Source: Aquabacterium sp. (GTDB lineage: Bacteria > Pseudomonadota > Gammaproteobacteria > Burkholderiales > Burkholderiaceae_C). Taken from it: DNA of 64,000 nt. Under the pieces are notes generated by a model. The model worked only from the letters and a program-made list of their open reading frames with translations, was not told the DNA's origin and did no database searches. This document shows, piece after piece, positions 2,540 through 63,659 of the stretch. Location of the stretch: contig NZ_JAQSDR010000003.1 in assembly GCF_029946005.1 (NCBI RefSeq), positions 2,836 to 66,835 on the forward strand. The letters run 5' to 3'. Position numbers and translations under genes: made by a program. The stretch's first letter is position 1. Each line of letters opens with the position of its first letter.

Positions 2540-3117
2540 GGCTTAGGCACCAGTTTGACCGACAGACCAGCGGCTGTCACGCGGATGTCCTCGACCTGGT
2601 AACCATGGCGATCGACCTCTCGCAAGTCTTCGGGCTTGAACTGGTGGATGGGGTAGTCCTGCAGTTTCTCTTGCGCCAGCATTGCGCCCAGCTTGGTCCA
2701 TTGCCGCTGCGTGGCCTCGGTCAGGCCCGCGATGGCCAGCTTGTCGACCGTCACCGTGTTCAGGCGAATGGTGCGGTCTTGCGCCTCGTAGCGCATGCCG
2801 AAGCTGACGCCTACCGTGCCTTGGTAGCTGCGCCCAAAGAGGCGGTCGGTGGCCTTGATGTCGAACTCGGAGGCGATGCGATTGGTCTCTGGGCTGAGTT
2901 GCAGGCGCGGCGCTTGCGCTTCGACCTCGAAGATCTCGGCCAGCGTCTTACGCATGGGGAATTGTTTGGACAGCTTGGCCAGCAGTTGTTCGCGCGAGAT
3001 GTCGACGGTGCGCGGGCCCATCAGGCTGGCGCAACCGGCCAGGGCCAAAACCATGGCGATCATCAGCCATGCCCAGCCGAACGTCTTGTGTTTGTGCAAC
3101 GAAGCGCTTGGAGCCAT
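2536..3117 (-). CDS. DUF1439 (YceB-like) lipoprotein
   Basis: Hydrophobic stretch with lipobox LAGC, then 'ISREQLLAKLSKQFPMRK'. Start chosen downstream of the terminator at 3169-3190; the exact start is uncertain. Confidence 0.7.
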   Translation of the reverse strand: MAPSASLHKHKTFGWAWLMIAMVLALAGCASLMGPRTVDISREQLLAKLSKQFPMRKTLAEIFEVEAQAPRLQLSPETNRIASEFDIKATDRLFGRSYQGTVGVSFGMRYEAQDRTIRLNTVTVDKLAIAGLTEATQRQWTKLGAMLAQEKLQDYPIHQFKPEDLREVDRHGYQVEDIRVTAAGLSVKLVPKP

Positions 3118-48766: not shown

Positions 48767-50500
48767 GTGCGTTTGCCGAGCGTTTTATCCCGGGGCCTGG
48801 CCCTGGTGTTGTGTGTTTCACCTCTGGCAGCCTGGTCCCAGGCCGCGCCCGTTGAGCCTGCGCCTGGGGTGATCCCCTCGGCTCAGCAACTCCAGCAAGT
48901 TCGTGAAACCACCCTGTCGCCCGTTGAAAGCGCCGCCGAGGTGCCCGCCCCCGCCCCCGTGCCCAAAGAGCTGGGCAAGCCCGTGGATGACATCACCCTG
49001 GACGTGGCGGCCTACGAGGTCGATGGCCTGAACGAGGTGCCGCGCGATGTGCTGGCCAAGCTGACAGCGCCCTACGCGGGCAAGGCGCGCAGTTACGAAG
49101 ACATGGTGGACGCGGCCGCTGCAGTGTCGCGCTACATGCAGCGCGAGCTGGGGTATTACCTGGGCCATGCCTACCTGCCGGAGCAATCGCCCAAGGATGG
49201 GGTGGTGCGCATTGCCGTGATGGAGGGGCGCCTGGACCAGGTGTTGCTGCAGTGGCCCGACAAGATGATCGTGCAGCGCGAGGTGGTCGAGCGCTACCTG
49301 GCGCGGCTGAAGCCCGGCGAGATCCTGCGCGTGCGCGATGTCGAGCGGGTGGTGTTCATGGTCAATGACCTGCAGGGCATCCGCGCCCGGTTCGAGGTCA
49401 GGGCCGGGCGACATCCGGGCACCGCCTCCTTGGTGGTGTCGCCGCAAAGCGAGGCCCGTTTCTCGGGCAAGGCCGAGTTTGACAGCCATGGTTCGCGCTA
49501 TTCAGGCACCGGGCGGCTCAATGTGGTGGGCACTTTTGCCAGCCCGCTGGGGCGTGGCGACGGCCTGGTGCTCAACGCCATGACCACGGTCACCGGCGGC
49601 ATGGGCTTTGGCCTGGTCAGCTATGTGCTGCCCTTGGGCTCGGACGGTTTGAAGTTGGGCGCGTCGGCCTCCAAGGTGCGCTATGAGCTCGACAAGGAAG
49701 CGTTCCCGGTGGGGCTGAATGGTGATGCCTCGGCGGCCAATGTGTTCGGCCTTTACCCCTTGGTGCGTTCGCGCAACCTGAACGTGTTCGCGCTGGCCAG
49801 CTTTGAGCACAAGGAGTTCGAGGACCGCCGCGAGATCGGCCTGAACACGCGCAAGCGCAGCGACGACTTGCAGGTGGGCGTGGTGGGCGACTTCCGCGAC
49901 AACATGCTGACGGGCGGCGTCAACACCTACGAGCTGAGCGTGCTGCAGGGGGATCTGACCTACCAGCAGGGCTTCGTGCCCAGCGACACGCCCCAGCGCT
50001 ACCAGAAGGTGACGGCCGGCTACTCGCGCCTGCAGAATCTGGTGAGCAACCGCCTGTTGCTGTACGTGCGCTACAAGGGCCAGCGCTCGTTGCAGAACCT
50101 GGACACGACCGAGCGCTTCAGCCTGGGTGGCCCGAGCGGCGTGCGGGCCTTTGCCCCGGGCGAGGCCACGGGCGACGAAGGTGACCTGTTCACCGCCGAG
50201 CTGCGATTTTTGCCCTTTGAATCCTGGTTTGGCCGCGCTTCGCGCGAGATGGTGTTCAGTGCCTTCTACGACGTGGGCCACGCCACTTTCCGCCACGATC
50301 CCAGCCTGCCTTCGCTCAACGCCTTGCCGGGCGCGCCCAACACGGCCACGCTCAGCGGCGCTGGCGTTGGGGCGATTTGGGACCGATCGCAATCGTTCGC
50401 CCTGCGCCTGAACCTGGCCTGGCCGCTCAATGGTGAAGGCACCAGCGATCCGGCCAAGAAGACACCCCGCGCCTATGCGGTGATGACCAAGTATTTCTGA
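48767..50500 (+). CDS. TpsB (ShlB/FhaC/HecB family) two-partner secretion transporter
   Basis: Signal peptide, POTRA domains (AYLPEQSPKDGVVRIAVMEG), RFSLGGPSGVRAF L6 motif and terminal Phe. Confidence 0.92.
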   Translation: MRLPSVLSRGLALVLCVSPLAAWSQAAPVEPAPGVIPSAQQLQQVRETTLSPVESAAEVPAPAPVPKELGKPVDDITLDVAAYEVDGLNEVPRDVLAKLTAPYAGKARSYEDMVDAAAAVSRYMQRELGYYLGHAYLPEQSPKDGVVRIAVMEGRLDQVLLQWPDKMIVQREVVERYLARLKPGEILRVRDVERVVFMVNDLQGIRARFEVRAGRHPGTASLVVSPQSEARFSGKAEFDSHGSRYSGTGRLNVVGTFASPLGRGDGLVLNAMTTVTGGMGFGLVSYVLPLGSDGLKLGASASKVRYELDKEAFPVGLNGDASAANVFGLYPLVRSRNLNVFALASFEHKEFEDRREIGLNTRKRSDDLQVGVVGDFRDNMLTGGVNTYELSVLQGDLTYQQGFVPSDTPQRYQKVTAGYSRLQNLVSNRLLLYVRYKGQRSLQNLDTTERFSLGGPSGVRAFAPGEATGDEGDLFTAELRFLPFESWFGRASREMVFSAFYDVGHATFRHDPSLPSLNALPGAPNTATLSGAGVGAIWDRSQSFALRLNLAWPLNGEGTSDPAKKTPRAYAVMTKYF

Positions 50501-50513
50501 GCGAGAGACGACC

Positions 50514-53500
50514 ATGAAACGCAGCACCTTGACCCACGCCCGTCGCCTCGCTCAAAGGGGGTGTTTTGCCTTGCGGCCTTTGTCCGCGGCGGCCGCCTTG
50601 CTCATCTTGTCGGAAGGGGCCATGGCCCAGACGGCGGCTTTGCCTTCGACCGGCAAGGTGATTTACGGTGATGTGACCACCACGCAGCCCAACGCCAACA
50701 CGCTCAACATCCACCAGGGCAGCGACAAGGCCTACGTTCAGTACGACAGCTTCTCGATCGGTTTGGGCAACAAGGTGGTCATCCAGCAACCGACGACTAC
50801 CTCGACCTTCCTGGGGCAGGTCACCGGCTACGACGCCAGTTTCATCATGGGGCAGTTGCAGGCCAATGGCCGGGTGTTCTTGATCAACCCCAACGGCATC
50901 GTGTTTGGTGAGCATGCGCGCGTGGACGTGGGCAGTTTGCTGGCCACCACCATGAGCTTGTCGCTGGGCGACTTTTTGAACAACCGCATTCTGCTGACCT
51001 CCAACCCCACCGATGGGCGCGGCGATCTGGCGGGCGTGGTGCGCAATGACGGCACCATCACCGCCAAGGATGGTTTCGTGGTGCTGGCCGGCCGCGAGGT
51101 CATCAACACCGGGCAGATCCTGGCCGAGAACGGCCGAGTGGGCCTGGCCGCCGCCAGCAAGCTGCTGGTCGATGTGGAAGGCGATGGCTTGCTGTTCTTC
51201 GAAGTCGAAGGCAAGGACGCTGGCGCGCGCCTGGCGCAACTCGGCCGCATCGAGGCCAATGGTGGCTCGGTGGAAATGATGGCCGCCGCGCGCGGCCAGT
51301 TCGCTGACACCGTGCTCAACATGAGCGGTGTGGTGCAAGCGCGCAGCCTGGGCATGAAGCAAGGCCGCGTGGTCATCGATGGTGGCGACAGCGGCGTCAC
51401 GTCGGTCACCGGCCAGGTAGACGTGTCGGGCCTGCAAGCCGGTGAGCGGGGTGGTTCGGTCAGCATCCTGGGCGATCGCGTGGGCCTGTTCGAGCACGCC
51501 AGCATCAACGCTTCGGGCGCGGCCGGTGGCGGTGATGTCAAGCTGGGTGGCGACTTCCACGGACAGGGCACCGCCCGCCGTGCCAGCCAGACCCTGGTGG
51601 GCCGCGATGTGAGCATCAAAGCCGATGCCACGGTGCAGGGCGATGGCGGCCAGGTGGTCGCTTGGGCCGATGGCGACACGCGCTTCCTGGGCAGCATTTC
51701 TGCACGTGGCGGTGCGCTGGGTGGCAATGGTGGTCAGGCCGAGGTCTCGGGCCGCGAAACGCTGGACTACCGTGGCCAGACCGATCTGCGCGGTGGCGCT
51801 GGCGGCGCCAAAGGCACCTTGCTGCTGGACCCGAGGAACATCGAGATCGTGGCCGCGGGCCCCGACATCGGCGGTGACGCCGGTGGCCTGGACCTGACGG
51901 CGGCCTCTTTCAGCGCCAACGCGGGTGGTGCTGGCAGCGTCAGCAAGATCACCGCCGGGGCCGTGGTCGCGCAACTTGACCTGGCCAATGTGCACTTGAG
52001 CGCCGACAAGGCCATCACCGTGTCCTCGGCCGTCGATGCCTCGGCCAACGCGGGTGACTTCGGCCTGCAGTTGACGGCGGGCGACCAGATCATCCTGAAG
52101 GCGGATGTGATCACCCGCAATGGCCTGACCCTGGATGGCACGCTGTCCAGTGGCGGCATCAACTTGACCGGCGCGCTGGCGCCCGTCACGCTGAACGCGG
52201 GCGCGGGCAAGCTGTCGCTGGGGGCGGCGGTGAACGGCGTGGCGCAGGGCCTGACCCTGGCCAGCACCAACACGGCGGCGGATGCCATCAAGACCACGGG
52301 CACGGTCACCAACGTGGCGGCCTTGAACGTGCAAGGCAAGTCGACCCTGGGCGGCAACGTCACCACCATCGGTGACCAAACCTACACCGGCACGACCACG
52401 CTGGCCGGCAACACGCAACTGGACGCGGCCGCGTCCAAGGTGTCGCTGGCCTTGGTCGATGGCGGAGGGCACAACCTCACCGTGCTGACCACCAGCGCGG
52501 CGGCCGATGCCATCTCGACCAGTGGCACCGTCAGCAACACGGCGGTGCTGAGCGTGCAGGGCAAGGCCACGCTGGGCGGCAACGTCACCACCACGGGCAA
52601 CCAGACCTACACCGGCCCGGTGGCCTTGGCGGCCAACGCGCAACTGGACGCGGGCGCCGCGAAGGTGTCCCTGACCTCGGTCGATGGTGGCACGCACGAC
52701 CTGACGGTCATCAGCAGCAACGCGGCGGCCGATGCCATCAAGACCACGGGTGCCATCACCAACACGGCGGCACTGAGCGTGCAAGGCAAGTCCACCTTGG
52801 GCGCAGACGTCACCACCACTGGCAACCAGACTTACACCGGCACCACCACCTTGGGTGCCAACGCGCAGTTGGACGCGGGCGCGGGCAAGGTTGCTTTGGC
52901 GGCGGTCGATGGCGGCACGCACAACCTGACGGTGTTCAGCAGCAACGTAGCGGCCGATGCGATCAAGACCACCGGCGCCATCACCAACACGGCGGTGCTG
53001 AGCGTGCAAGGCAAGTCCACTTTGGGGGCAGACGTCACCACCACCGGCAACCAGACTTACACGGGTACCACCACGCTGGGCGCGAACGCGCAGTTGAACG
53101 CAGGCGCGGCCAAGCTTGCCTTGGCGGCGGTCGATGGCGGCACGAACAACCTGACGCTGGTCAGCAGCAACGCGGCGGCCGATGCAGTCAAGACCACGGG
53201 TGCCATCACCAACACGGCGGCGCTGAGCGTGCAAGGCAAGGTCACGCTGGGTGGGGATGTCACCACCACGGGCGGCCAAACTTACGACAGCGCCGTCACT
53301 TTGGCCGCCCCGGTCACCCTCAAGGGCGACAGCCTGAGCTTGACCAGCCTGGCCGCCGGCATCAACGACGTCGGCCTGCGGGCCGACACCATCACCTTGA
53401 CCGGCGCCGCCACCGGCACGGCCAATGCCATCTTCGAGCCCCTGTCCGACACCGGCAGCATCAGCGTGGCAGGCGGCCTGCCCGTGGCTGCCAACACCCT

Positions 53501-56500
53501 GCAACTGAGCCAGGCCCTGCTCGATAAGTTCAGCACCTACCAAAGCATCGTGGTGGGCAGCGCCGCCAATGCCTACACCATCGGCTTTGGCGACTTCGTG
53601 TTGCCGACCAAAACCGTGGTCCGCAGTGCCAGCGGCGCGGTCACCTTCGCCAAGCTGGATGGCGCCTTTGCGCTTGAGGCGCAGACCACCGGCACCATCA
53701 GCTTGAACGACCTGATCGGCGGCACCAACGCCCTGAGCAGTGTGGACCTGAACGGCCCCGTCACGGTCAGCACCAGTCTGGTCAAAACGTCTGGCAATCA
53801 AACCTACAGTGGCGCGGTCACGCTGGCGGCCACCACTTCCCTGGAGGCCGGTGCGGGCAAAGTCTCGCTGACCAGCGTGGATGGCGGCGGCGCGCATGAC
53901 CTCACGCTCAAGAGCGCGAATGCCGCGGCCGATGCGGTCAAGACCACCGGCACCATCAGCAATGTCCGTGCACTCGATGTGCAGGGCAAGGTCACGCTGG
54001 GCGGCGACGTCACCAGCACGGGCAACCAGACTTACGGCGACACCACCACCTTGGCGTCCAACGTGACGCTGGACGCCGGTGCCGCCAAGGTGAGCCTGGC
54101 CGGTGTGGCCGGTGCCACGCACGACCTGACGGTCAAGAGCAGCAATGCGGCGGCCGACGCGATCAAGACCACCGCCGCGATCGGTGGCGTGGGCGCCTTG
54201 GGCCTGCAGGGCAAGACCACCTTGGGTGCCAATGTCGTCACCACGGGGGCGCAGGACTACACCGGCCCGGTCACCCTGGGTGGCGCGGTGACGGTGAACA
54301 GCAATGGCGCCAACGTGCGCTTCCGCGACACGGTCGATGGCGCGCAAGCGCTGACGGCCAATGCGGGCGCCGGCAATGCGCGCTTCGACGGTGCCGTCGG
54401 TGGCGACACCGCGCTCACCAGCCTGGGCGTGACCGCCGCGTCGGTCGACCTCAATGGCGGCGCCATGACCACCAGTGGCGCGCAAACCTACACCACGCCC
54501 ACGGTCACCCTGGGCGCCAACACCACCTTCACCACCAGCAACCTGCAGGCCACCGGCAACCTCAATGCCGGGGCGCACAACCTGTCGGTGTTTGCCGATG
54601 CTTTGGGCGTGGCGGGCAACATCCTTAGCACTGGCGCGGGCAACGCCAGCATTGCCGGGCGCCTGGCCTCGACCTCCATTGGCCTGGCTGGCGGCGCCGG
54701 TGACCTGCAGGTCACGGGCGCCTTGCTGGGCAAGTTCGCCAGCTTTGGCAGCGTCACCGTGGGCCGCACCGATGGCACCGCCAACATCACCTTCGGCAAC
54801 ATGACGGGCGGCACGGCCCTGAACCGCAGCCTCAACGTGCGCAACGGCTCGGGCGACATCGTGTTCGGCCAGGTCGACACCACGGTCGACGGGTTCTTCA
54901 ACCTCGACGCGGCCACGACCACGGGCACCGTTCGCTTGAATGGCGACGTCGGGGGCATCAGCCGCTTGAACAGCCTGACGCTGGGCGGCCCCACCCGCAT
55001 CGCCGCATCCAACATCTTCACCGGCGGTTTCCAGCGCTACAACGGCGCGGTCACCCTGGCCTCCGATGTGAACATGAACGCCACCACCGCCACCTTTGGC
55101 AGCACGGTGAATGGCGCGCACCACCTCACGGTCACCCTGCCCAGCAGCAGCTTCTCTTACTACGCCTATTTCATCGGCGCGGTGGGCGGCACCACGCCCC
55201 TGGCCAGCTTGACCGTGAACGGCAACACCTACGTTGAAGACAACGTGATCACCTCGGGCGCGCAGTACTACGGTGCGTCCGCCATTCTGTTGGACGACGC
55301 CACCTTCACCGGCACCGCCTTGACCTTCAACACCAACCTGGCCGCCGGGGCGAACGACCTCGGCCTGCTCACGGATGCCTTGTTCATTGGCGGCACCTTG
55401 TCGGGCTCGGGCGCCGCGCAGATCGCGCCGTACACGGTGGGCCGCGACATCGTGGTGTCCGGCACGGGTTCGGGCGGCGAGTTGGTGGTGGACGCCTCCA
55501 CCTTCAGCCAGTTCTCCAGCTTCTCCAGCCTCACGGTCGGCCGGGCCGATGGCACAGGCACCATCACGCTGGGGTCGAGTGGGGCTTTGGGCTCCACCGC
55601 CTTGCTGACCGACCTGACCCTGCTCAGCGGCACGGGCGACATCACCGTGCTGTCGGCCATCAACGGCGCGCACAGCCTGGCGCTGAACACTGGCGGCACG
55701 ACCAGGATCAACGCGAGCCTGTCGGGGCTGACGGCCGTGTCCACCAACGCGGGCGGCACCACGCGCATTGGCGCCAGCGTGGACACCAACGGCGACACCA
55801 TCGGTGGCACGCAAACCTATGGTGACGCGGTGACGCTGGACAACAGCGCCAACCTGACGTCTACCGCAGTGGCTTTCGATGACACCGTCAACGGGGCCTC
55901 GGCGGGTGGCCAGGCCTTGACCGTCAATGGCAACGCGCGCTTTGGCCAGGCGGTGGGTGCCAGCCAGGCCTTGAACTCGGTCAGGGTGACCGGCACCACC
56001 CAGTTTGACCATGGCGGCGCCAGCAGCACCGGTTCCCAGGTTTACGTGGGGGCGGTGACTTTGGGTGATGTCAGCAACTTCAACGCCAGCGGCGCCTTTG
56101 TGCGCTTTGAAAATACCGTCACCGGGCCGCATGCCCTGACCACCAACACGGCCACCGGCACGGTGTTCTTCAACGCCGTCAACGTGGCGTCGGTCAATGT
56201 GGGGTCGGGCCTGTCTTACCTGTATGGCGGCAGCGTGACCACCACCGGCACGCAAACCTACGCGGCCAATTCGCTGCTGGGCGCCAACAACACGCTCACG
56301 GGCACCAACATCGCCTTTGGCGGCACAGTGGATGGCGGCCAGACCCTGGCCATCAACGCCTCGGGCACGACCACCCTCGGGGGCGCCGTGGGCGCCACCA
56401 CCGCCCTGACCAGCTTGAGCACATCGGGCGTCACCAACCTCAATGGCGCCAGCATCCGAACCACCGGCGCACAAAGCTACGGTGGCGCGGTCACCCTGGG

Positions 56501-59500
56501 CGCCAACACCACGGTCACCGCCAACACGGTCGATTTCAACGGCACGGTCAATGGCGCACGCACCCTGTTGGTCAACGACAGCGGCACCACCACCTTCCAT
56601 GGCAATGTGGGCGGCACCGCGGCCCTGACCAGCCTGGCCACCACCGCAGGCGGCAGCACGGTCTTGCCCGCGCAAGTGACCACCTCGGGCGCGCAGGTCT
56701 ATGGCGACCCAGTCACGCTGTCGGCCAACACCGCCTTGAGCGCCAACAGCGTCAGCATGGCCAACCTGATCGGCGCCAGCCACACCCTGGCAATCGCCAC
56801 GCCGGGCCTGGTCGATTTCAACGGCACCATCACCGGCGTGACCGGCCTGGACAAGACCGGCACCGGCACCGTGCGCTTCATCGGCGCCAATGGCCTGACC
56901 ACCACCGGCGCACAAAGCTATGGCGGCAATGTCCAGGTGCTCAGTGGCGATGCGGTCTTCGATGGTTCATCCCTGGACTTCGCGGGCGACATCACCGGCG
57001 CCAACAACCTGAGCCTGACCTCCGACGTCATCAACGTGGCCGGGGCCTTGACCGGCTCGGGCGCGGGCACCTTCACCATCGCGCCCAAGAGCGTGGGCAC
57101 CACCATCGGCTTGAGCGGTGGCGCGGGCGCCCTGCAGGTGAACCTGAACACCGTCTCGGGCTTCACGCAGCGCGTGATCGGCCGCACCGACGGCACGGGC
57201 ACGGTCAACGTGGGCGCGTCCACCCTGAGCGCCAACACAACGGTGCAAAGCGGCACGGGCGCCATCAACTTTGGCGCACTCGATGGCGCGCAGGCTTTGA
57301 CGGTCAACACCGCAGGCGTGACCAGCTTCAATGGCAACGTCACCGGCCTGACCACCTTGAGCACCGACGCGGCGGGCAGCACGCACTTCAATGGCAGCAG
57401 CGCCAGCGCGACCACGGCCTTGAGCTTTGGCGATGCCGTGGTGTATGGCGGCGACGTCAGCTTCACCGCCCCATCGATCACGCTGGGCGGCGGTGCCAGT
57501 GGCGGCGCCAACCTCACCCTGGCCACCAACACCTTGAGCCTGGGCGGCGACCTGTCGGGCAGTGGCGAGCTGACCCTGCAACCCACGGCCGCGGGCACCG
57601 CCATCGGCCTGGCTGGTGGCGTGGGTACCTTGCAGATCACGCAGGCCACCTTGAACCGAGTCACCGGCTTCACCTCGCAGACCATTGGCCGCACCGACGG
57701 CACCGGCGCCATCAACGCCAACGCGATGACCCTGGCCCGCAACACCCAAGTGCAAAGCGCCTCGGGCAACGTGACGTTCAACAGCACCGTGGATGGTGCG
57801 CGGGCCCTGACGGTCAACACCACCGGCACCACCGCCTTCAACGGTGATGTGGGCGGCACCACCGCCCTGGCCAGCCTGAGCACCAACGCGGGCGGCAGCA
57901 CCGCCATCAATGCCAGCCAGGTGCGCGCCACCGGTGCGCTGCACTTCGGCGATGCCGTCACCTACACGGGCAACACCACCTTCAGCAGCGACACGCAGCA
58001 GTTCGATGGCGGTGTCACCGGTGGCGCCAACCTGACCCTGGTGGCCAACACGCTGACCTCGGGCGGGCCGATCTCCGGCTCGGGCATCCTGAACATCCTG
58101 CCCTTGACCGCCACCACGATCGGCCTGGCCGGCGCGGGTGGTGGGGGCGACCTCTTGATCAGCCAGGCCCTGCTGGACCAGACCAGTGGCTTCACCCAGC
58201 TCGTGATCGGCGCCAGCACCGGCACGGTGGACATCCAGTCCGGCGCCTTGACCCTGGGCGTGGACACCACGCTGCAAAGTGGCACCGGCCAGATCCACTT
58301 GCAGTCCACCGTGGATGGGGCCCATGCCTTGACCGTTAACACGGCGGGCCTGACGCGCTTCCAGGGCAATGTGGGTTCGACCACGGCCTTGGCCAGCCTG
58401 ACCACCGATGCCCCCGGCACCACGCAGATCGACGCCAGCGCCATGCGCACCAGTGGCGCGCAGACTTACAACGATCCGGTGGTGACCAGTGGCGTGCTGT
58501 CCCTGGTGGCGTCCACCGTTACCCTGCACACCGTCGGCAACCTGCGGCTGGGCCTGGTCAACCTGGGCCTGGGTGGCGACATCAGCACCGACGGTGTGTT
58601 GACCCTGGAAGACTCGCTCAACCTGGGTGGCGGCGTGCTGACCCTGCAGGCGGGCGGGGGCCCTGGCGGTGGTATCGCGTTCAACGACAGCGAGTTGAGC
58701 GGCCGCCCCGGCCTGATCACCGGCAACCTGTTGGTGAACGAGGCCGCTGCCGCCATCCTGCAGACCAACGGCACGATCACCACGGCCGCCGGCTCCACGC
58801 TGGACCTGCAAGCCGTGAACCGTGGCTCCATCCGGATCGACCACACCACCAACGAGATCGCGGGCAACCTGAAAGCCGTCAGCGGCCCGGAGGGCGACAC
58901 CAACACCGGGCGCTTCAGCGGCTCGGGCACCTTGCCGCTGAGCTTTGTGCGGGTGGATGCCAACCAGATCAACTCGGCGGGCATCGAGGCTGATGCGGTC
59001 AAGCTCACCGCCAACAGCTTGACGACCAACGCCGGCACCAAGATCCGTGCGCGCCTGCCTTACATCAATGCCCAGGGCATTGAAAGCTCGGTGCCGGCGC
59101 TGACCCTGGTGCTGAAGCAGCCCACTGTGATCAACCAGTTCGGCACGCCGGCCACCACCAGCTGGATCCAGGTGGACGTGGGCGACAGCTTCGGGGGTTA
59201 CCTGACCGTGCGACCCAAGGGCGCGGGCGCGGGATCGTCGGCTGTTTACCTGGGGGGTTCGGAGGGCAGCGTGCCTTTCTACGATGGCACCAGCAAATCC
59301 AGCGAAATCCAGGTGTACTACAACGGCCGCGTGCCTTCCACCCCGCAGGAAGTGGGGGCCTTGAGCGCGGTGACCGCCGTGATCGAAGAATCGCGCCGGG
59401 CCCGTTTCGACGAAGCCGTGCGCACCGAAAACGTGTCGTCCCGGCTGCGCACGGGCGTGATCGCCGAAGTGGGCGCGGGCCGCCCGGCCACCGAAGGCTC

Positions 59501-59558
59501 CGAGTCCATCCGCATGCCCGCCACCTGCACCCCAACCGCCACCTTGGGTTGCCAATGA
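50514..59558 (+). CDS. TpsA filamentous haemagglutinin-like exoprotein (3014 aa, HMW1/HxuA-type TPS domain)
   Basis: Signal peptide; TPS domain with FSIG and RVFLINPNGIVFG; long Gly/Thr/Asn beta-helix repeats; Cys-containing C-terminus (TCTPTATLGCQ). Confidence 0.92.
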   Translation: MKRSTLTHARRLAQRGCFALRPLSAAAALLILSEGAMAQTAALPSTGKVIYGDVTTTQPNANTLNIHQGSDKAYVQYDSFSIGLGNKVVIQQPTTTSTFLGQVTGYDASFIMGQLQANGRVFLINPNGIVFGEHARVDVGSLLATTMSLSLGDFLNNRILLTSNPTDGRGDLAGVVRNDGTITAKDGFVVLAGREVINTGQILAENGRVGLAAASKLLVDVEGDGLLFFEVEGKDAGARLAQLGRIEANGGSVEMMAAARGQFADTVLNMSGVVQARSLGMKQGRVVIDGGDSGVTSVTGQVDVSGLQAGERGGSVSILGDRVGLFEHASINASGAAGGGDVKLGGDFHGQGTARRASQTLVGRDVSIKADATVQGDGGQVVAWADGDTRFLGSISARGGALGGNGGQAEVSGRETLDYRGQTDLRGGAGGAKGTLLLDPRNIEIVAAGPDIGGDAGGLDLTAASFSANAGGAGSVSKITAGAVVAQLDLANVHLSADKAITVSSAVDASANAGDFGLQLTAGDQIILKADVITRNGLTLDGTLSSGGINLTGALAPVTLNAGAGKLSLGAAVNGVAQGLTLASTNTAADAIKTTGTVTNVAALNVQGKSTLGGNVTTIGDQTYTGTTTLAGNTQLDAAASKVSLALVDGGGHNLTVLTTSAAADAISTSGTVSNTAVLSVQGKATLGGNVTTTGNQTYTGPVALAANAQLDAGAAKVSLTSVDGGTHDLTVISSNAAADAIKTTGAITNTAALSVQGKSTLGADVTTTGNQTYTGTTTLGANAQLDAGAGKVALAAVDGGTHNLTVFSSNVAADAIKTTGAITNTAVLSVQGKSTLGADVTTTGNQTYTGTTTLGANAQLNAGAAKLALAAVDGGTNNLTLVSSNAAADAVKTTGAITNTAALSVQGKVTLGGDVTTTGGQTYDSAVTLAAPVTLKGDSLSLTSLAAGINDVGLRADTITLTGAATGTANAIFEPLSDTGSISVAGGLPVAANTLQLSQALLDKFSTYQSIVVGSAANAYTIGFGDFVLPTKTVVRSASGAVTFAKLDGAFALEAQTTGTISLNDLIGGTNALSSVDLNGPVTVSTSLVKTSGNQTYSGAVTLAATTSLEAGAGKVSLTSVDGGGAHDLTLKSANAAADAVKTTGTISNVRALDVQGKVTLGGDVTSTGNQTYGDTTTLASNVTLDAGAAKVSLAGVAGATHDLTVKSSNAAADAIKTTAAIGGVGALGLQGKTTLGANVVTTGAQDYTGPVTLGGAVTVNSNGANVRFRDTVDGAQALTANAGAGNARFDGAVGGDTALTSLGVTAASVDLNGGAMTTSGAQTYTTPTVTLGANTTFTTSNLQATGNLNAGAHNLSVFADALGVAGNILSTGAGNASIAGRLASTSIGLAGGAGDLQVTGALLGKFASFGSVTVGRTDGTANITFGNMTGGTALNRSLNVRNGSGDIVFGQVDTTVDGFFNLDAATTTGTVRLNGDVGGISRLNSLTLGGPTRIAASNIFTGGFQRYNGAVTLASDVNMNATTATFGSTVNGAHHLTVTLPSSSFSYYAYFIGAVGGTTPLASLTVNGNTYVEDNVITSGAQYYGASAILLDDATFTGTALTFNTNLAAGANDLGLLTDALFIGGTLSGSGAAQIAPYTVGRDIVVSGTGSGGELVVDASTFSQFSSFSSLTVGRADGTGTITLGSSGALGSTALLTDLTLLSGTGDITVLSAINGAHSLALNTGGTTRINASLSGLTAVSTNAGGTTRIGASVDTNGDTIGGTQTYGDAVTLDNSANLTSTAVAFDDTVNGASAGGQALTVNGNARFGQAVGASQALNSVRVTGTTQFDHGGASSTGSQVYVGAVTLGDVSNFNASGAFVRFENTVTGPHALTTNTATGTVFFNAVNVASVNVGSGLSYLYGGSVTTTGTQTYAANSLLGANNTLTGTNIAFGGTVDGGQTLAINASGTTTLGGAVGATTALTSLSTSGVTNLNGASIRTTGAQSYGGAVTLGANTTVTANTVDFNGTVNGARTLLVNDSGTTTFHGNVGGTAALTSLATTAGGSTVLPAQVTTSGAQVYGDPVTLSANTALSANSVSMANLIGASHTLAIATPGLVDFNGTITGVTGLDKTGTGTVRFIGANGLTTTGAQSYGGNVQVLSGDAVFDGSSLDFAGDITGANNLSLTSDVINVAGALTGSGAGTFTIAPKSVGTTIGLSGGAGALQVNLNTVSGFTQRVIGRTDGTGTVNVGASTLSANTTVQSGTGAINFGALDGAQALTVNTAGVTSFNGNVTGLTTLSTDAAGSTHFNGSSASATTALSFGDAVVYGGDVSFTAPSITLGGGASGGANLTLATNTLSLGGDLSGSGELTLQPTAAGTAIGLAGGVGTLQITQATLNRVTGFTSQTIGRTDGTGAINANAMTLARNTQVQSASGNVTFNSTVDGARALTVNTTGTTAFNGDVGGTTALASLSTNAGGSTAINASQVRATGALHFGDAVTYTGNTTFSSDTQQFDGGVTGGANLTLVANTLTSGGPISGSGILNILPLTATTIGLAGAGGGGDLLISQALLDQTSGFTQLVIGASTGTVDIQSGALTLGVDTTLQSGTGQIHLQSTVDGAHALTVNTAGLTRFQGNVGSTTALASLTTDAPGTTQIDASAMRTSGAQTYNDPVVTSGVLSLVASTVTLHTVGNLRLGLVNLGLGGDISTDGVLTLEDSLNLGGGVLTLQAGGGPGGGIAFNDSELSGRPGLITGNLLVNEAAAAILQTNGTITTAAGSTLDLQAVNRGSIRIDHTTNEIAGNLKAVSGPEGDTNTGRFSGSGTLPLSFVRVDANQINSAGIEADAVKLTANSLTTNAGTKIRARLPYINAQGIESSVPALTLVLKQPTVINQFGTPATTSWIQVDVGDSFGGYLTVRPKGAGAGSSAVYLGGSEGSVPFYDGTSKSSEIQVYYNGRVPSTPQEVGALSAVTAVIEESRRARFDEAVRTENVSSRLRTGVIAEVGAGRPATEGSESIRMPATCTPTATLGCQ
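52250..54300 (+). repeat. Intragenic 225-228 bp (75-76 aa) tandem repeats in tpsA
   Basis: Unit 'AADAIKTTG..TN.A.L.VQGK.TLG..VTTTGNQTY' recurs about 5 times at 225-bp spacing (~52250-53330) and 2-3 more times (~53800-54300). Antisense ORFs repeat at 52382, 52607, 52832 and 53057. Confidence 0.9.
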
Positions 59559-59622
59559 TTGATGAACACGGCAGCGCGCCAATAGCATACAGTTTGAAGT
59601 TCGACCACCTCCGAGCCCGACC

Positions 59623-61011
59623 GTGAAATCAACCGTGAACCGCCGCCAAGTCCTCACCATACCGCTGGCCCTGGGCTTGCCCTCGGTGACCTTGGCGCAG
59701 GGCTATTCCTACGGCAGCAGCCCAAGCGCGGCGGCGGCCCCGGCGGTGGCTTCGGGCAAGGCCCCCAAGCGTTTTGCCCTGCTGGTGGGCAACCGCGCCT
59801 ACCCCTCGCCATTTGACCTGCCCCCCGTCCACAAGAACCTGCGCGACGTGCAGGCCGTGCTGGAAAAGCGCGGCTTCGAAGTCACCGTGGTGACCGACCA
59901 GGACGTGAAGGTGCTGCGCGATGCCATGCAGTCTTTCGCCAAACGCGTGCAGGCCGCACCGGCCGATGCGACCGTGCTGTTTTACTTCACCGGCCACGGC
60001 ATGCAGGTCGACGCCGAGAACCTGCTGCTGGGCGCGGGGACCAACCCCAGCGGCAAGGAAGACTCGCTGCTGGGCAATGGCCTGATGCTCAAGCGCGACC
60101 TGGTCGATGCCTTGCCGCACCGCCCCAAGGGCCTGAGCATGGTGGTGATCGACGCCTGCCGCACCTCATTGCGCGCTGAAGGTGGCCTCAACCAGGTCGA
60201 GGCCCCGCTGGGCTGCCTGATCGCCTTTGCCACCGGCGCTGGCAAGCCCGCCATCGCGCCCGCCGTTGAAACGCAGAACACCTTCTACACGGCCTCGCTG
60301 GTCAAGGTGATGCAAGCGGCGTCGGACGACACCACGTTCTCCGACCTGTTCCGCCTGGTCAAGCTGGACGTGCAGCAGACCATGCTGAACCACCCCATCC
60401 AGGCCATCCGCAACGTGGCGCAGTTTCCCTTCATCGCCGAGAACACGCAGATCCGCACGCGCCTGGCCCTCAAGCCCGCTGCGCCCGGTGGCGAGGTGGC
60501 ATTCGAGAACGTCGATGAAAAAACCCTGTGGAAGCAGGTGGAAGAAAGCTACTGGCCGGGCGACGTGGTCAAGCGCGCTGATGAATACCTCAAGCGCTTT
60601 CCCGGCGGCAAGCTGGCGGGCTCGGCCCAAGTGGCCCGCGAGGGCGCGACCGACGCGGCCAAGGCCATGCAGCGCAACGATGTGCGCCTGTTCAAGAGCG
60701 CTTTCAGTCCCAAACCCGAAAGCCCCGACGGCCTGCTGCGCGAGTTGCGCAAGGCCGCTTGGGGCGACAAGGATGCGGCCGCACGGATCGCGCGAATGTA
60801 CCGCCGTGGCGAAGATGGCGTGAGCACGGACAGCAACCGTTTTGAAGGCTGGATGCAGTTCGCGTCGGCCCTGGGCAACGGGATCGCCAGTTACGAGCTG
60901 GCCCTGTACTACCGGGGCCAGGACCAGCCTTTGCTGGCCGCGCAGTTCGAGTCACGGGCGCGCGAGCTGGGCTACACGCCGCCGCCCACGCTGGACCACT
61001 ACCGCAAGTGA
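59623..61011 (+). CDS. Caspase-like peptidase C14 protein with Tat-like signal and C-terminal Sel1-like repeats
   Basis: NRRQVL signal; RFALLVGNRAY, catalytic His (FYFTGHG) and Cys (IDACR), IAFAT; C-terminal GDKDAAARIARMYRRG..GV and GNGIASYELALYY. Confidence 0.88.
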   Translation: MKSTVNRRQVLTIPLALGLPSVTLAQGYSYGSSPSAAAAPAVASGKAPKRFALLVGNRAYPSPFDLPPVHKNLRDVQAVLEKRGFEVTVVTDQDVKVLRDAMQSFAKRVQAAPADATVLFYFTGHGMQVDAENLLLGAGTNPSGKEDSLLGNGLMLKRDLVDALPHRPKGLSMVVIDACRTSLRAEGGLNQVEAPLGCLIAFATGAGKPAIAPAVETQNTFYTASLVKVMQAASDDTTFSDLFRLVKLDVQQTMLNHPIQAIRNVAQFPFIAENTQIRTRLALKPAAPGGEVAFENVDEKTLWKQVEESYWPGDVVKRADEYLKRFPGGKLAGSAQVAREGATDAAKAMQRNDVRLFKSAFSPKPESPDGLLRELRKAAWGDKDAAARIARMYRRGEDGVSTDSNRFEGWMQFASALGNGIASYELALYYRGQDQPLLAAQFESRARELGYTPPPTLDHYRK

Positions 61012-61041: not shown

Positions 61042-62907
61042 TCACTGAACCTCTTCAGACGAGAACTTGGCGGCGCCATACTCGTCTTCGCAGCCTGCCC
61101 CGCCTTCGCAGTTCGGCAGGCCCGCAAAGGCCGAGCCGGGGCCGGTGTGTTGGCGCGCGATGGCCAGCGCCGCATCCGGCTTGGGGTACATGCCAAAGCC
61201 GCCATCGTTCTTCAGGCCTGAGGCCTCAAAGTTGCGCGGCTGGCTGGAGACGATCACCAGGAAGTGATCGGTGCCCGCTGGGCCCGCCACGTCCATGGGC
61301 CAGCTGGCCTGCGGCAGGTTCAAGGTCTGGCCCGCCTTGATGCGGTTGTTGCGCGCCATCTTGTTGGGGAAGAGCTGCATGAACTCGCCTTCGGTGCTTT
61401 GCAGCAGCACGTAAACATGGCCCTCGCGCGCTGATTTGACGGTGAAGGCCAGCCGGTCTTTGCCGATGCGGAACTGAGGCTTGGTCGACGCAGCCTCGAC
61501 CCCGAAGCCGGGCGTTTGCGCCGCGATGATGCGGTCGAACTCGCGCAGGGCATCGAAGGGGCCATCGACCACGGGGGGCGTCGTGGCCACAGTGGGGGCT
61601 GGTGTGGGGGGCGGAACAGGCGTCACGGCTGGTGGCGCCACGGGCGTTGGGCTCACCACCGGCGGGGCCGTGGTGGCCGCAGGAGTGGCCTCTGCCACCA
61701 CGGCGGTGGTGGGCGCCGATGCCGGGGTCAGCAGCCAGAACGCCGTGCCGCCCAGGCCTGCCAAGGCCAGCGCGCCCACGCCGATCATCAAGCCCGTGCG
61801 CGAGGCTGCCGGTGCAGCGGTGTCTGATGAGATCGTTTTGGGCTTGGCGGGCGCCGACGCTGGCGGGCGCGGCACCTGGGCGCCTCCACCTGGCGATGCC
61901 AGCTTCACCGGCTGCGTCACCATGGGGTTGAAATCCACGCCGCCCAGGCCCAGGGCCGCGCGTAACTCGGCGATGCTTTGCGTGCGGTCTTCCGGCTTGA
62001 CGACCAAGGCCCGGTCAATGGCGTTGAGGAAGCGCTCGCTGTACTTGCCCGCAACCTGCTGGGCCAGCGGCACGTAGTGGTCGCTCATCAGGCGGCCCAC
62101 GGCCGGTGGTGGCGTCTTGCCCAGGATGGCGTAGTGGATGGACGCGGCCAACGCGTAGATGTCGGTCCAGCCGCCTTGCTTCATGCCCGGCACTTCGGCG
62201 TATTGCTCGACCGGCGCGTAGCCTGGCTTGAGGATCACGGTCAGCGCCTGCGTCATGTCGCCGATCACTCGGCGCGCGGCGCCAAAGTCCAGCAGCAGCG
62301 GGCGGCCGCTGCCTTTCAGCAAGATGACGTTGTCGGGCGCGATGTCGCGGTGAAAGCACTGCTCGGCGTGGATCACCTCCAGCGCCTCGGTCAGGGGCGC
62401 CAGCATGCCCATCAACCAGGCCTCGTCGGGCGGGCCGTTCATGTCCTTCAGCGCCTGCTTGAGCGTCTGGCCCTCGTAGAAGGGCATGATCATGTAGGCC
62501 GTGCCATTGGCCTCCCAGAAGCGGTACACCTTCACCAGTGAGGCGTGGTCAAACTGGGCCAGCAGCTTGGCCTCGTTCACGAAGCTCTTCAGGCCGGCTT
62601 CAAAGGTGTCGCGGTGGCGTTCGGATTTGACCGACACCTGCGTGGCGCCGGTGCGAGCGGCCAGGGCCGAAGGCATGTACTCCTTGAGCGCCACGCGGCG
62701 TTCCAGCGAGTGGTCCCAGACCATGTAGACGATGCCAAAGCCGCCTTCGCCCAGCATGCTGGTGATCTCGAACTCGCCCAGGTAGGTGCCCACCGGCAGG
62801 GCATTGCCGTGGTCATCCTGCACCGGGGTGGGCGCGGCGGCGGGTGGCGGCTGCGTGCGGTTGACCGGCTTGATGATGGTGCGGTCGTCGTCGGATGAAT
62901 CGCTCAT
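61042..62907 (-). CDS. Membrane Ser/Thr protein kinase (PpkA-like) with a C-terminal DUF4384-like domain
   Basis: LGEGGFGIVY, VALKEY, HRDIAPDN, DFG and YAPVEQY; TM helix; Pro/Ala linker; periplasmic 'FRIGKDRLAFTVKSAREGHVYVL...QLFPN' domain. Confidence 0.9.
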   Translation of the reverse strand: MSDSSDDDRTIIKPVNRTQPPPAAAPTPVQDDHGNALPVGTYLGEFEITSMLGEGGFGIVYMVWDHSLERRVALKEYMPSALAARTGATQVSVKSERHRDTFEAGLKSFVNEAKLLAQFDHASLVKVYRFWEANGTAYMIMPFYEGQTLKQALKDMNGPPDEAWLMGMLAPLTEALEVIHAEQCFHRDIAPDNVILLKGSGRPLLLDFGAARRVIGDMTQALTVILKPGYAPVEQYAEVPGMKQGGWTDIYALAASIHYAILGKTPPPAVGRLMSDHYVPLAQQVAGKYSERFLNAIDRALVVKPEDRTQSIAELRAALGLGGVDFNPMVTQPVKLASPGGGAQVPRPPASAPAKPKTISSDTAAPAASRTGLMIGVGALALAGLGGTAFWLLTPASAPTTAVVAEATPAATTAPPVVSPTPVAPPAVTPVPPPTPAPTVATTPPVVDGPFDALREFDRIIAAQTPGFGVEAASTKPQFRIGKDRLAFTVKSAREGHVYVLLQSTEGEFMQLFPNKMARNNRIKAGQTLNLPQASWPMDVAGPAGTDHFLVIVSSQPRNFEASGLKNDGGFGMYPKPDAALAIARQHTGPGSAFAGLPNCEGGAGCEDEYGAAKFSSEEVQ

Positions 62908-62948: not shown

Positions 62949-63659
62949 CTAGGCGGCGGCGCTGCCCAGCAGGGCGGCAAATCCGTCGCCCCGTGGCAAA
63001 CCGCGCGAAACCAGGCTGCGGGGGGCGCCTTCGGCCGATTCGGTCCACCAGAAGGCCAGGCCTTGCGCGGCGGCCTGCCATGAGGTGGCCGCGCTTTGGG
63101 CCAGCAAGCTGCTCAGGTCGGCGCGGCCGGCCACCGGCAAGTGGGCGTGCTGCAGTGGTCCCTGCAGGACGCTGGCCAAGGCCGAGGCGCCCGGTGAAGG
63201 CGCTGGCGTGGTCGGCGTGGGCGGCAACAGGCGTTCCAGTTCGGACTCCAGTTGCTCGATGCTCCAGTCGTCGTGCAGGGCATCGGCGGCGGCGTCGTCC
63301 AGCTGGTGCAGCCAGGCGAGCAGGGCGTCGGTGTCGGCTGCGGTGGAGGGTGTGGGCGCGATCGGCGCGATCAGCGTGAGCGGAAAGTAGCGCCCCACGC
63401 GGTCGACCGAGGGCATCAGCACGCCCGCCATGGCGGTGTCCAGCCCGATCACGCCGGGCATGAGCAAGAAGCGCCAGACGGGGCTGGCCAGATAGTGGTC
63501 CAGCCAAGTGCCTTCGGCTTGCGCGCGCAGCCCGGCGATGCCTTCGGCCAGCCAGGCGTCCCAGGGGTCGATGAAGGTGGGTTCCAGGCGGCGCGAGGCG
63601 AAGTCACCCAGGGTCGGCAGCTTGCCGTACCAGCCGGGAATGGGGGGCGTTGCGGTCAT
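62949..63659 (-). CDS. tagF: Type VI secretion-associated protein TagF
   Basis: GWYGKLPTLGDF, WDAWL, PVWRF and MPSVDRVGRYFPL motifs. Confidence 0.92.
   Translation of the reverse strand: MTATPPIPGWYGKLPTLGDFASRRLEPTFIDPWDAWLAEGIAGLRAQAEGTWLDHYLASPVWRFLLMPGVIGLDTAMAGVLMPSVDRVGRYFPLTLIAPIAPTPSTAADTDALLAWLHQLDDAAADALHDDWSIEQLESELERLLPPTPTTPAPSPGASALASVLQGPLQHAHLPVAGRADLSSLLAQSAATSWQAAAQGLAFWWTESAEGAPRSLVSRGLPRGDGFAALLGSAAA

Follow-up and report, generated by a model that had tools for sequence, protein, structure and literature searches.

Bacterial caspase homologues are widespread, and few have a known substrate. The locus described here raises the question of what such a protease does in a two-partner secretion (TPS) operon. 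The window, a stretch of 64,000 nucleotides of an Aquabacterium sp. genome (assembly GCF_029946005.1, contig NZ_JAQSDR010000003.1, positions 2,836 to 66,835; all coordinates below are counted within the window unless a contig or locus is named), carries three consecutive plus-strand genes for an outer membrane transporter (tpsB), a very large filament protein (tpsA) and a caspase-like peptidase of family C14. This trio is a real, conserved and unstudied module, and it belongs to type VI secretion system (T6SS) clusters as an accessory; its adjacency to them is frequent but not universal. Gene order, domain content, conservation, co-occurrence, predicted folds and the T6SS context are established here. 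We put the odds at about one in two that the C-terminal tail of TpsA retains the filament on the cell and that the protease cuts this tail. The module offers a testable candidate enzyme-substrate pair, an exported C14 protease and a conserved 70-residue tail.

An initial annotation, made from the sequence alone, had placed the three genes with 13 bp between tpsB and tpsA and 64 bp between tpsA and the protease gene, and the list of open reading frames (ORFs) gives the same coordinates and spacing. The tpsB gene (48767-50500, plus strand) encodes an Omp85-type transporter of 577 aa with a signal peptide, a POTRA domain (Pfam POTRA_2, E 3.4e-11) and a ShlB barrel (E 6e-16). The tpsA gene (50514-59558, plus strand) encodes a beta-helical filament protein of 3014 aa. 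The TPS domain (PF05860, residues 57-293, E 3.6e-29) is the sole domain that Pfam recognises in it, and NCBIfam matches its NPXG domain (TIGR01901). A POTRA transporter with a ShlB/FhaC barrel next to a TPS-domain protein identifies the pair as two-partner secretion (type Vb). The third gene (59623-61011, plus strand) encodes the C14 peptidase of 462 aa. The neighbours on either side of the trio are on the minus strand. No terminator-like site or hairpin was found at the junction of tpsA and the protease gene. In several orthologues, the stop codon of tpsA and the start codon of the protease gene overlap by 4 bp, which argues for co-transcription and translational coupling of the two genes. 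In genome G009 (G, C and L numbers are our handles for genomes, contigs and loci), tpsB is 95% identical and the gene order is the same. The initial annotation had also set the locus apart from contact-dependent inhibition (CDI; CdiA/CdiB/CdiI), and rightly so: there is no VENN-type motif, Pfam finds no toxin or PT domain in TpsA, and the gene that follows tpsA is the 462-aa protease and not a small immunity gene.

The conservation of the trio was examined from both ends. A scan with one genome per species yielded 18 loci with a full-length protease orthologue, including its C-terminal Sel1-like domain. A TpsA C-terminus was encoded directly upstream in 16 of these, with protease identities of 56-96%; one contig was too short, and the locus of Limnobacter litoralis had no TpsA nearby. 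In the reverse look-up, six divergent tpsA genes were found in public assemblies by their tail, and all six had tpsB upstream and an adjacent Peptidase_C14 gene. The protease gene was downstream in five and upstream on the opposite strand, divergently oriented, in the sixth, indicating that the adjacency of TpsA and protease survives rearrangement. Co-conservation of the protease with the TPS pair, on which the initial annotation had made its interpretation depend, is thus borne out by the 16 loci and the six look-ups. The gene order is kept in Aquabacterium, Leptothrix, Rubrivivax, Roseateles, Caldimonas and Aquariibacter. Tail and protease also occur in the same genomes. Among 401 genomes sampled evenly across the order, four contained the tail (E<1e-10): G000, which is the genome of the window, G028, G095 and G227. 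The protease (E<1e-30) was detected in the same four, and in a sample of 24 genomes of the genus, both were present in the same five. The genomes that share them span three families of the order, Limnobacter included. Furthermore, 61 more distant C14 relatives (27-38% identity) had no TPS neighbour and no tail motif, so it is the subfamily carrying a Sel1-like domain that is linked to TPS, and not C14 peptidases generally.

We then considered the protease itself. Pfam assigns residues 49-272 to Peptidase_C14 (E 1.5e-25), which places the caspase-fold catalytic domain at 59767-60438 (plus strand). The catalytic dyad reported by the initial annotation is intact: the motifs FTGHGMQ and IDACRT are present, and His125 and Cys179, together with Asp177, are invariant in an alignment of 17 orthologues of 47-96% identity. 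An alignment-profile search of the PDB returned the MALT1 paracaspase as the best match (E 3e-10), followed by the metacaspase MCA2. The AlphaFold model has a caspase fold (pLDDT 81.9, pTM 0.82), and its top Foldseek matches were MALT1 and caspases, with a TM score of about 0.75 on the target and 11-18% identity to the solved structures. Pfam, AlphaFold and Foldseek therefore agree on a clan CD peptidase of family C14 with a His-Cys dyad. Asp177 lies two residues before the catalytic Cys and, by residue counting in the profile alignment, corresponds to what we take to be Asp462 of MALT1. In its fold, its dyad and this Asp, which is found at the same place in Arg/Lys-specific members, the protein resembles MALT1, the metacaspases and the bacterial orthocaspases (MEROPS C14B). 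It differs from them in its predicted export, its fusion to a Sel1-like domain and its genomically defined candidate substrate.

Export of the protease is well supported by its N-terminus (VKSTVNRRQVLTIPLALGLPSVTLAQ; signal peptide at 59623-59700, plus strand), which has the arginine pair R7/R8, a hydrophobic core and an A-x-A-like end. The same three elements are found in 17 of 17 orthologues and in six more sequences from other sources, which upholds the predicted export. Tat is a plausible route, and TatC is encoded in the genome of the window. The remainder of the protease, at 60511-60966 (plus strand), forms an all-helical domain of nine helices, in which most 10-residue blocks have a mean pLDDT above 90 in the AlphaFold model. 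Pfam finds no Sel1 repeat in the single protease sequence, even at E<=10. The profile of the domain does match solved Sel1-repeat proteins (6deh, E 2e-8; 6onw, 6e-5; 6orc, SEL1L and MotX), and the Sel1-like label of the initial annotation is thereby upheld. An invariant block, GDKDAAAR...EGW...LGNGIA.Y.LA..YR, runs through the domain in the 17 orthologues. A stand-alone paralogue of this domain (208 aa, with a Sec signal) was observed in G000 (contig C6, 239670-240161; L002, 1498-2124, minus strand), where it adjoins a gene for a methyl-accepting chemotaxis protein, and comparable copies occur in G009, G011 and G021. Given that a copy with a Sec signal exists, the Sel1-like domain fits a predicted periplasmic binding module.

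The candidate substrate is the end of TpsA. In the AlphaFold model of the last 430 residues, the beta-helix continues to about residue 2940 and is terminated by a predicted alpha-helix of 36 residues (residues 2944-2979; 59343-59450, plus strand; model positions 360-395, PQEVGALSAVTAVIEESRRARFDEAVRTENVSSRLR). The last 35 residues (2980-3014; 59451-59555, plus strand) are modelled with low confidence (pLDDT <50) and appear to form a conserved, unstructured tail, a candidate cysteine hook and protease target. The tail carries the motif GVIAEVGxGRPATxG...C-x8-C. The two-Cys ending noted in the initial annotation is real and conserved: apart from C17 in the signal peptide, TpsA has no cysteines other than C3005 and C3013, and these only two cysteines of the mature protein are invariant in the 16 loci. 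No segment of TpsA is more conserved across these loci than helix and tail together, about 60 residues, with the consensus E..R...F...VRTENV..RLR.GVIAEVG.GRPAT.G.E..R.P..C-x8/9-C; five arginines in the tail are invariant and a sixth is nearly so. In the shaft, conservation averages about 46%. In one close relative the shaft is 66% identical, TpsB 93% and the protease 98%. Between the window and its close relatives L022 and L016, the identities are 66-79% for the shaft vs 93-95% for TpsB, 97-98% for the protease and 95% for the tail. The divergence of the shaft fits diversifying selection or repeat shuffling of a part presumed to be surface-exposed. A profile of the last 85 residues gave 175 matches among 1.84 billion representative proteins, nearly always at the extreme C-terminus, in proteins of up to 5480 residues. 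The public annotations of tail-bearing TpsA proteins are generic, such as "filamentous hemagglutinin family protein" or "hypothetical". One match of the tail profile, with nine repeats (P0150), was dismissed as a spurious low-complexity protein. On this evidence, the two-Cys tail is a plausible candidate for the protease substrate.

The best hint to where the tail acts comes from a second locus. G000 encodes another TpsB, 57% identical to that of the window (contig C40, 73596-75975; L111, 7594-9975, minus strand), followed by a small protein of 176 aa. The small protein has a Sec signal peptide and lacks a TPS domain; it contains the tail motif twice in tandem, both times with a Cys-x8/9-Cys loop. 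In the genus sample, this double-tail protein is present in all five protease-bearing genomes and in no other, and it follows the TpsB paralogue in all further genomes checked (G009, G015 and G021). Other double-tail proteins of about 180 aa turn up among the database matches of the tail profile. Since a tail without a filament is encoded beside TpsB, the tail is suggested to be a periplasmic element that interacts with TpsB. It may act as plug, anchor or decoy, and would then not belong to an exposed tip.

Taken in order, the scheme that we favour would run as follows. TpsB would export the 3014-aa beta-helical filament. Some 70 residues at the end of TpsA would remain in the TpsB pore or beneath it and so tether the filament to the cell; they consist of the 36-residue helix, a predicted disordered segment rich in Arg and a loop that C3005 and C3013, the sole cysteines of mature TpsA, would close. 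The protease would enter the periplasm through its twin-arginine signal peptide, dock by its Sel1-like domain and cut the tail after a basic residue, with the result that the filament is shed or remodelled, or that a tail peptide is freed. The state of the filament would in turn be coupled to the post-translational checkpoint of the T6SS. The filament might hold target cells for the T6SS until the protease releases it, or the tail cleavage might feed the PpkA/TagF checkpoint. These steps draw on conservation, predicted localisation and analogy; what we infer is the topology, the disulfide, that the tail is cut and where, how the protease is exported, and any signalling.

The analogy is closest to CdrA of Pseudomonas aeruginosa, which a C-terminal cysteine hook retains in CdrB until the periplasmic protease LapG cuts its retention module and the adhesin is shed (PMC13405001, PMC4694147). 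TpsA likewise has a C-terminal Cys pair, predicted to form a disulfide and of the cysteine-hook kind, and a candidate periplasmic cysteine protease accompanies it. Unlike LapG, this protease has a clan CD caspase fold (C14) and is encoded in the operon; no TAAG site is present in the last 200 residues of TpsA; and the genomic context is a T6SS and not biofilm-matrix genes. No LapD or c-di-GMP receptor turned up, and no search aimed at LapD was made. If our scheme is true, a second, unrelated class of protease would serve the combination of cysteine hook and periplasmic protease in the retention and release of TPS adhesins. HMW1 of Haemophilus influenzae is tethered to its transporter HMW1B by a C-terminal disulfide loop. 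TpsA resembles it in having two cysteines within its last 20 or so residues, whereas the tails are not detectably homologous, and we know of no dedicated protease for HMW1/HMW1B. In the literature we found no description of a separate periplasmic C14 protease in a TPS system, or of a TPS system embedded in a T6SS cluster.

The interpretation in the initial annotation, in which an exported caspase-like enzyme processes, releases or reports on the filament, is partly supported. It is sound as far as it goes, but it lacks the association with T6SS genes, which is essential to understanding the module. Convergent with the protease gene, and 30 bp from its stop codon, lies a gene for a PpkA-like Ser/Thr kinase of 621 aa (61042-62907, minus strand). 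The protein consists of a kinase domain (Pfam Pkinase), one transmembrane segment, a Pro/Thr-rich linker and a DUF4384 domain that is predicted to be periplasmic. It is preceded by tagF (TagF_N, PF09867, E 5.3e-45; 62949-63659, minus strand), which lies 41 bp upstream. The longest ORF of the kinase gene (821 aa, from a TTG at 63507) overlaps tagF, and analysis of start codons favours the ATG at 62907, 41 bp past the tagF stop. A TagF_N protein and a membrane kinase with a predicted periplasmic domain, linked to tss genes in relatives, are the mark of TagF/PpkA-type control of a T6SS. This pair stands beside the TPS-C14 unit or a tail protein in at least 10 loci, and in the genus sample full-length orthologues of the kinase (>=60% identity) are confined to the five protease-bearing genomes. 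The window retains only tagF and the kinase gene among T6SS genes; in G000 the T6SS core is on other contigs. In the genome of the window, the TPS-C14 unit has moved with tagF and the kinase gene and not with tssK/L/M.

In relatives, the T6SS genes that flank the module include tssA/B/C, hcp, tssK/L/M, fha and pppA. Aquabacterium soli and its kin have the order tpsB-tpsA-C14-tssK-tssL-tssM-tagF-kinase, followed by a VipA/VipB-like gene. In Roseateles saccharophilus, two Rubrivivax metagenome-assembled genomes and a JGI metagenome contig, tssA-tssB-tssC-hcp-tssE-tssF-tssG adjoin tpsB or tpsA. In Roseateles, two genes with no Pfam match come after the protease gene on the same strand, and then genes for Fha, a PP2C phosphatase and a PAAR-like protein; in G095 the kinase gene and tagF come after the protease gene. 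A. soli and R. saccharophilus are available in culture, and the organisms that carry the module are harmless freshwater Burkholderiales. A divergent VipA/VipB-like protein is encoded by an open frame of about 475-680 aa (G000, contig C38, 20839-21684; also in G009, G011, G015 and G021); within the genus sample it is limited to the five protease-bearing genomes, and it adjoins the kinase gene in three. Where the huge tpsA takes up the upstream flank, a locus undercounts the association with T6SS genes; at L131, a locus like L031 read from the other side, the T6SS core is upstream of tpsB. Given that the module sits in T6SS clusters and that tagF and the kinase gene are kept when it is detached from the core, a coupling between filament state and the T6SS checkpoint is probable. 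The position beside a TagF/PpkA/Fha/PppA checkpoint also suggests a testable idea, namely that some T6SSs sense or hold neighbouring cells in this way.

Several observations weigh against retention by the tail and its cutting by the protease, or against parts of that scheme. First, the genomes that carry tail and protease are kin to each other, and the counts overstate their independence. In addition, adjacency to TagF and other T6SS genes fails in some lineages: in the genome of L033 TagF is found on a separate contig, in that of L030 it is 32-42 kb away on the same contig, and at L130 no T6SS gene was found within 10 kb. For the acidic S1 pocket expected of an Arg/Lys-specific C14B protease, Asn72 aligns with Asp365 of MALT1, and just one position of the pocket can be aligned with confidence. 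As for the export route, the arginine pair of the twin-arginine-like signal claimed in the initial annotation stands in all 17 orthologues, whereas no sequence reaches the cut-off of the Pfam TAT_signal model (15 bits vs 22.7 in one orthologue, no score in the others). Finally, Limnobacter litoralis has an intact protease gene, which follows tssA-like and truncated clpV-like genes (L036, 7194-11365), and a tail-bearing protein of 592 aa without a TPS domain, 170 kb away, whose gene is divergent from an adjoining tagF and DUF4384 kinase gene (L113, 8327-12781). No TssC was found in this genome, and with the truncated clpV-like gene and the TPS-less tail protein the system looks decayed. The protease, still intact where the tail protein has no TPS domain, may have another substrate. 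In a second Limnobacter genome (G227), the protease and tail matches both fall within short open frames.

We next weighed other roles for the module. The foremost is a contact trigger, in which the filament would serve as a feeler, strain or contact would expose the filament tail to cleavage, and either the tail or the protease would act on the DUF4384 domain of the kinase, release the TagF/Fha checkpoint and let the T6SS fire. A contact sensor would then be made up of the filament, its caspase-like periplasmic protease, TagF and the DUF4384 kinase, and in it proteolysis of the tail licenses local T6SS assembly; if true, this would be a proteolytic, caspase-based input to the firing of a bacterial weapon. 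The persistence of tagF and the kinase gene beside the TPS-C14 unit apart from tssK/L/M in the window speaks for it, as do the operon-like run of the Roseateles protease gene with fha, PP2C phosphatase and PAAR genes, the Limnobacter tail protein next to tagF and kinase, and the DUF4384 genes near about 14 of the 61 distant C14 genes. The threonine phosphorylation pathway of the P. aeruginosa H1-T6SS (TagQRST, PpkA, PppA, Fha1 and TagF) offers a parallel, with envelope accessory genes next to ppkA and tagF, a kinase with a periplasmic sensor domain and, in the Roseateles relative, genes for Fha and a PP2C phosphatase. It differs in that no TagQRST homologues are present here and the candidate input is a TPS filament with a caspase-like protease; the DUF4384 ectodomain of the window kinase is presumably also different from that of P. 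aeruginosa PpkA. Against a contact trigger, several lineages carry the module with neither tagF nor the kinase gene nearby, and TssC is encoded in 23 of the 24 genomes of the genus, so that co-occurrence with a T6SS at the level of the genome is uninformative there. We regard such a trigger as unlikely.

Slightly less probable still is a role in maturation or quality control, where the protease would trim or degrade the periplasmic C-terminus of TpsA while it is being secreted or afterwards, or clear stalled TpsA from TpsB. The arguments from linkage and topology apply to it just as they do to retention and release. The processing of FhaB by periplasmic and surface proteases is established in Bordetella, where DegP, CtpA and SphB1 act on its prodomain. 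The C-terminus of FhaB stays periplasmic and is processed in a way that controls the mature filament, as is proposed here for TpsA. In contrast to the FhaB prodomain of about 1200 residues and its serine proteases encoded elsewhere, TpsA has a tail of about 70 residues and an operon-encoded candidate cysteine protease. Such a short tail is not a large prodomain, and a Cys loop this strictly conserved speaks for a persisting retention device rather than a disposable leader.

A different substrate is improbable in our view. The protease would then act on an envelope or T6SS component, the ectodomain of the kinase or the double-tail protein, and its place beside tpsA would merely reflect a shared T6SS island. 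The double-tail mini proteins do exist, and the intact Limnobacter litoralis protease, next to tssA-like and truncated clpV-like genes and far from the tail protein, would be accommodated. However, no single T6SS gene comes close to tpsA in the tightness of its adjacency to the protease gene, tpsA adjoins it even where T6SS genes are absent nearby, and tail and protease match one-to-one across genomes. A chance neighbourhood, or an inactive pseudo-protease, had nothing in its favour and is contradicted by the orthologue loci with their gene order kept across six genera, by a dyad invariant down to 47% identity and by the six concordant reverse look-ups, and we set it aside. Retention by the tail and release by the protease remains the reading that we prefer.

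Two wider comparisons concern the protease family. Caspase-like releasing peptidases act in cis within polymorphic toxins, and the table for type V secretion systems (T5SS) in that survey lists HINT only (Zhang et al. 2012, PMC3482391). The likeness is a clan CD peptidase associated with the processing of large secreted proteins; the difference is that the peptidase here is a separate, predicted periplasmic protein and that TpsA has no toxin domain. Among the 61 distant C14 loci, the accompanying DUF4384 gene lies about 4.6-5.5 kb downstream of the C14 start in at least eight (L044, L051, L056, L060, L080, L085, L094 and others), which hints that caspase-like proteases and DUF4384 are functionally linked more widely. 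No function for this domain was found in the literature consulted.

A second TPS operon was observed beside the first at L035 (11498-18688, minus strand). It encodes an exported TPR-CHAT protease (734 aa), a TpsB (590 aa) and a TpsA (1058 aa) that has TPS and MBG_2 domains and ends in C-x9-C-AGF. It seems that this family is not the only one in which a TPS filament ending in a Cys loop is paired with an exported protease of clan CD.

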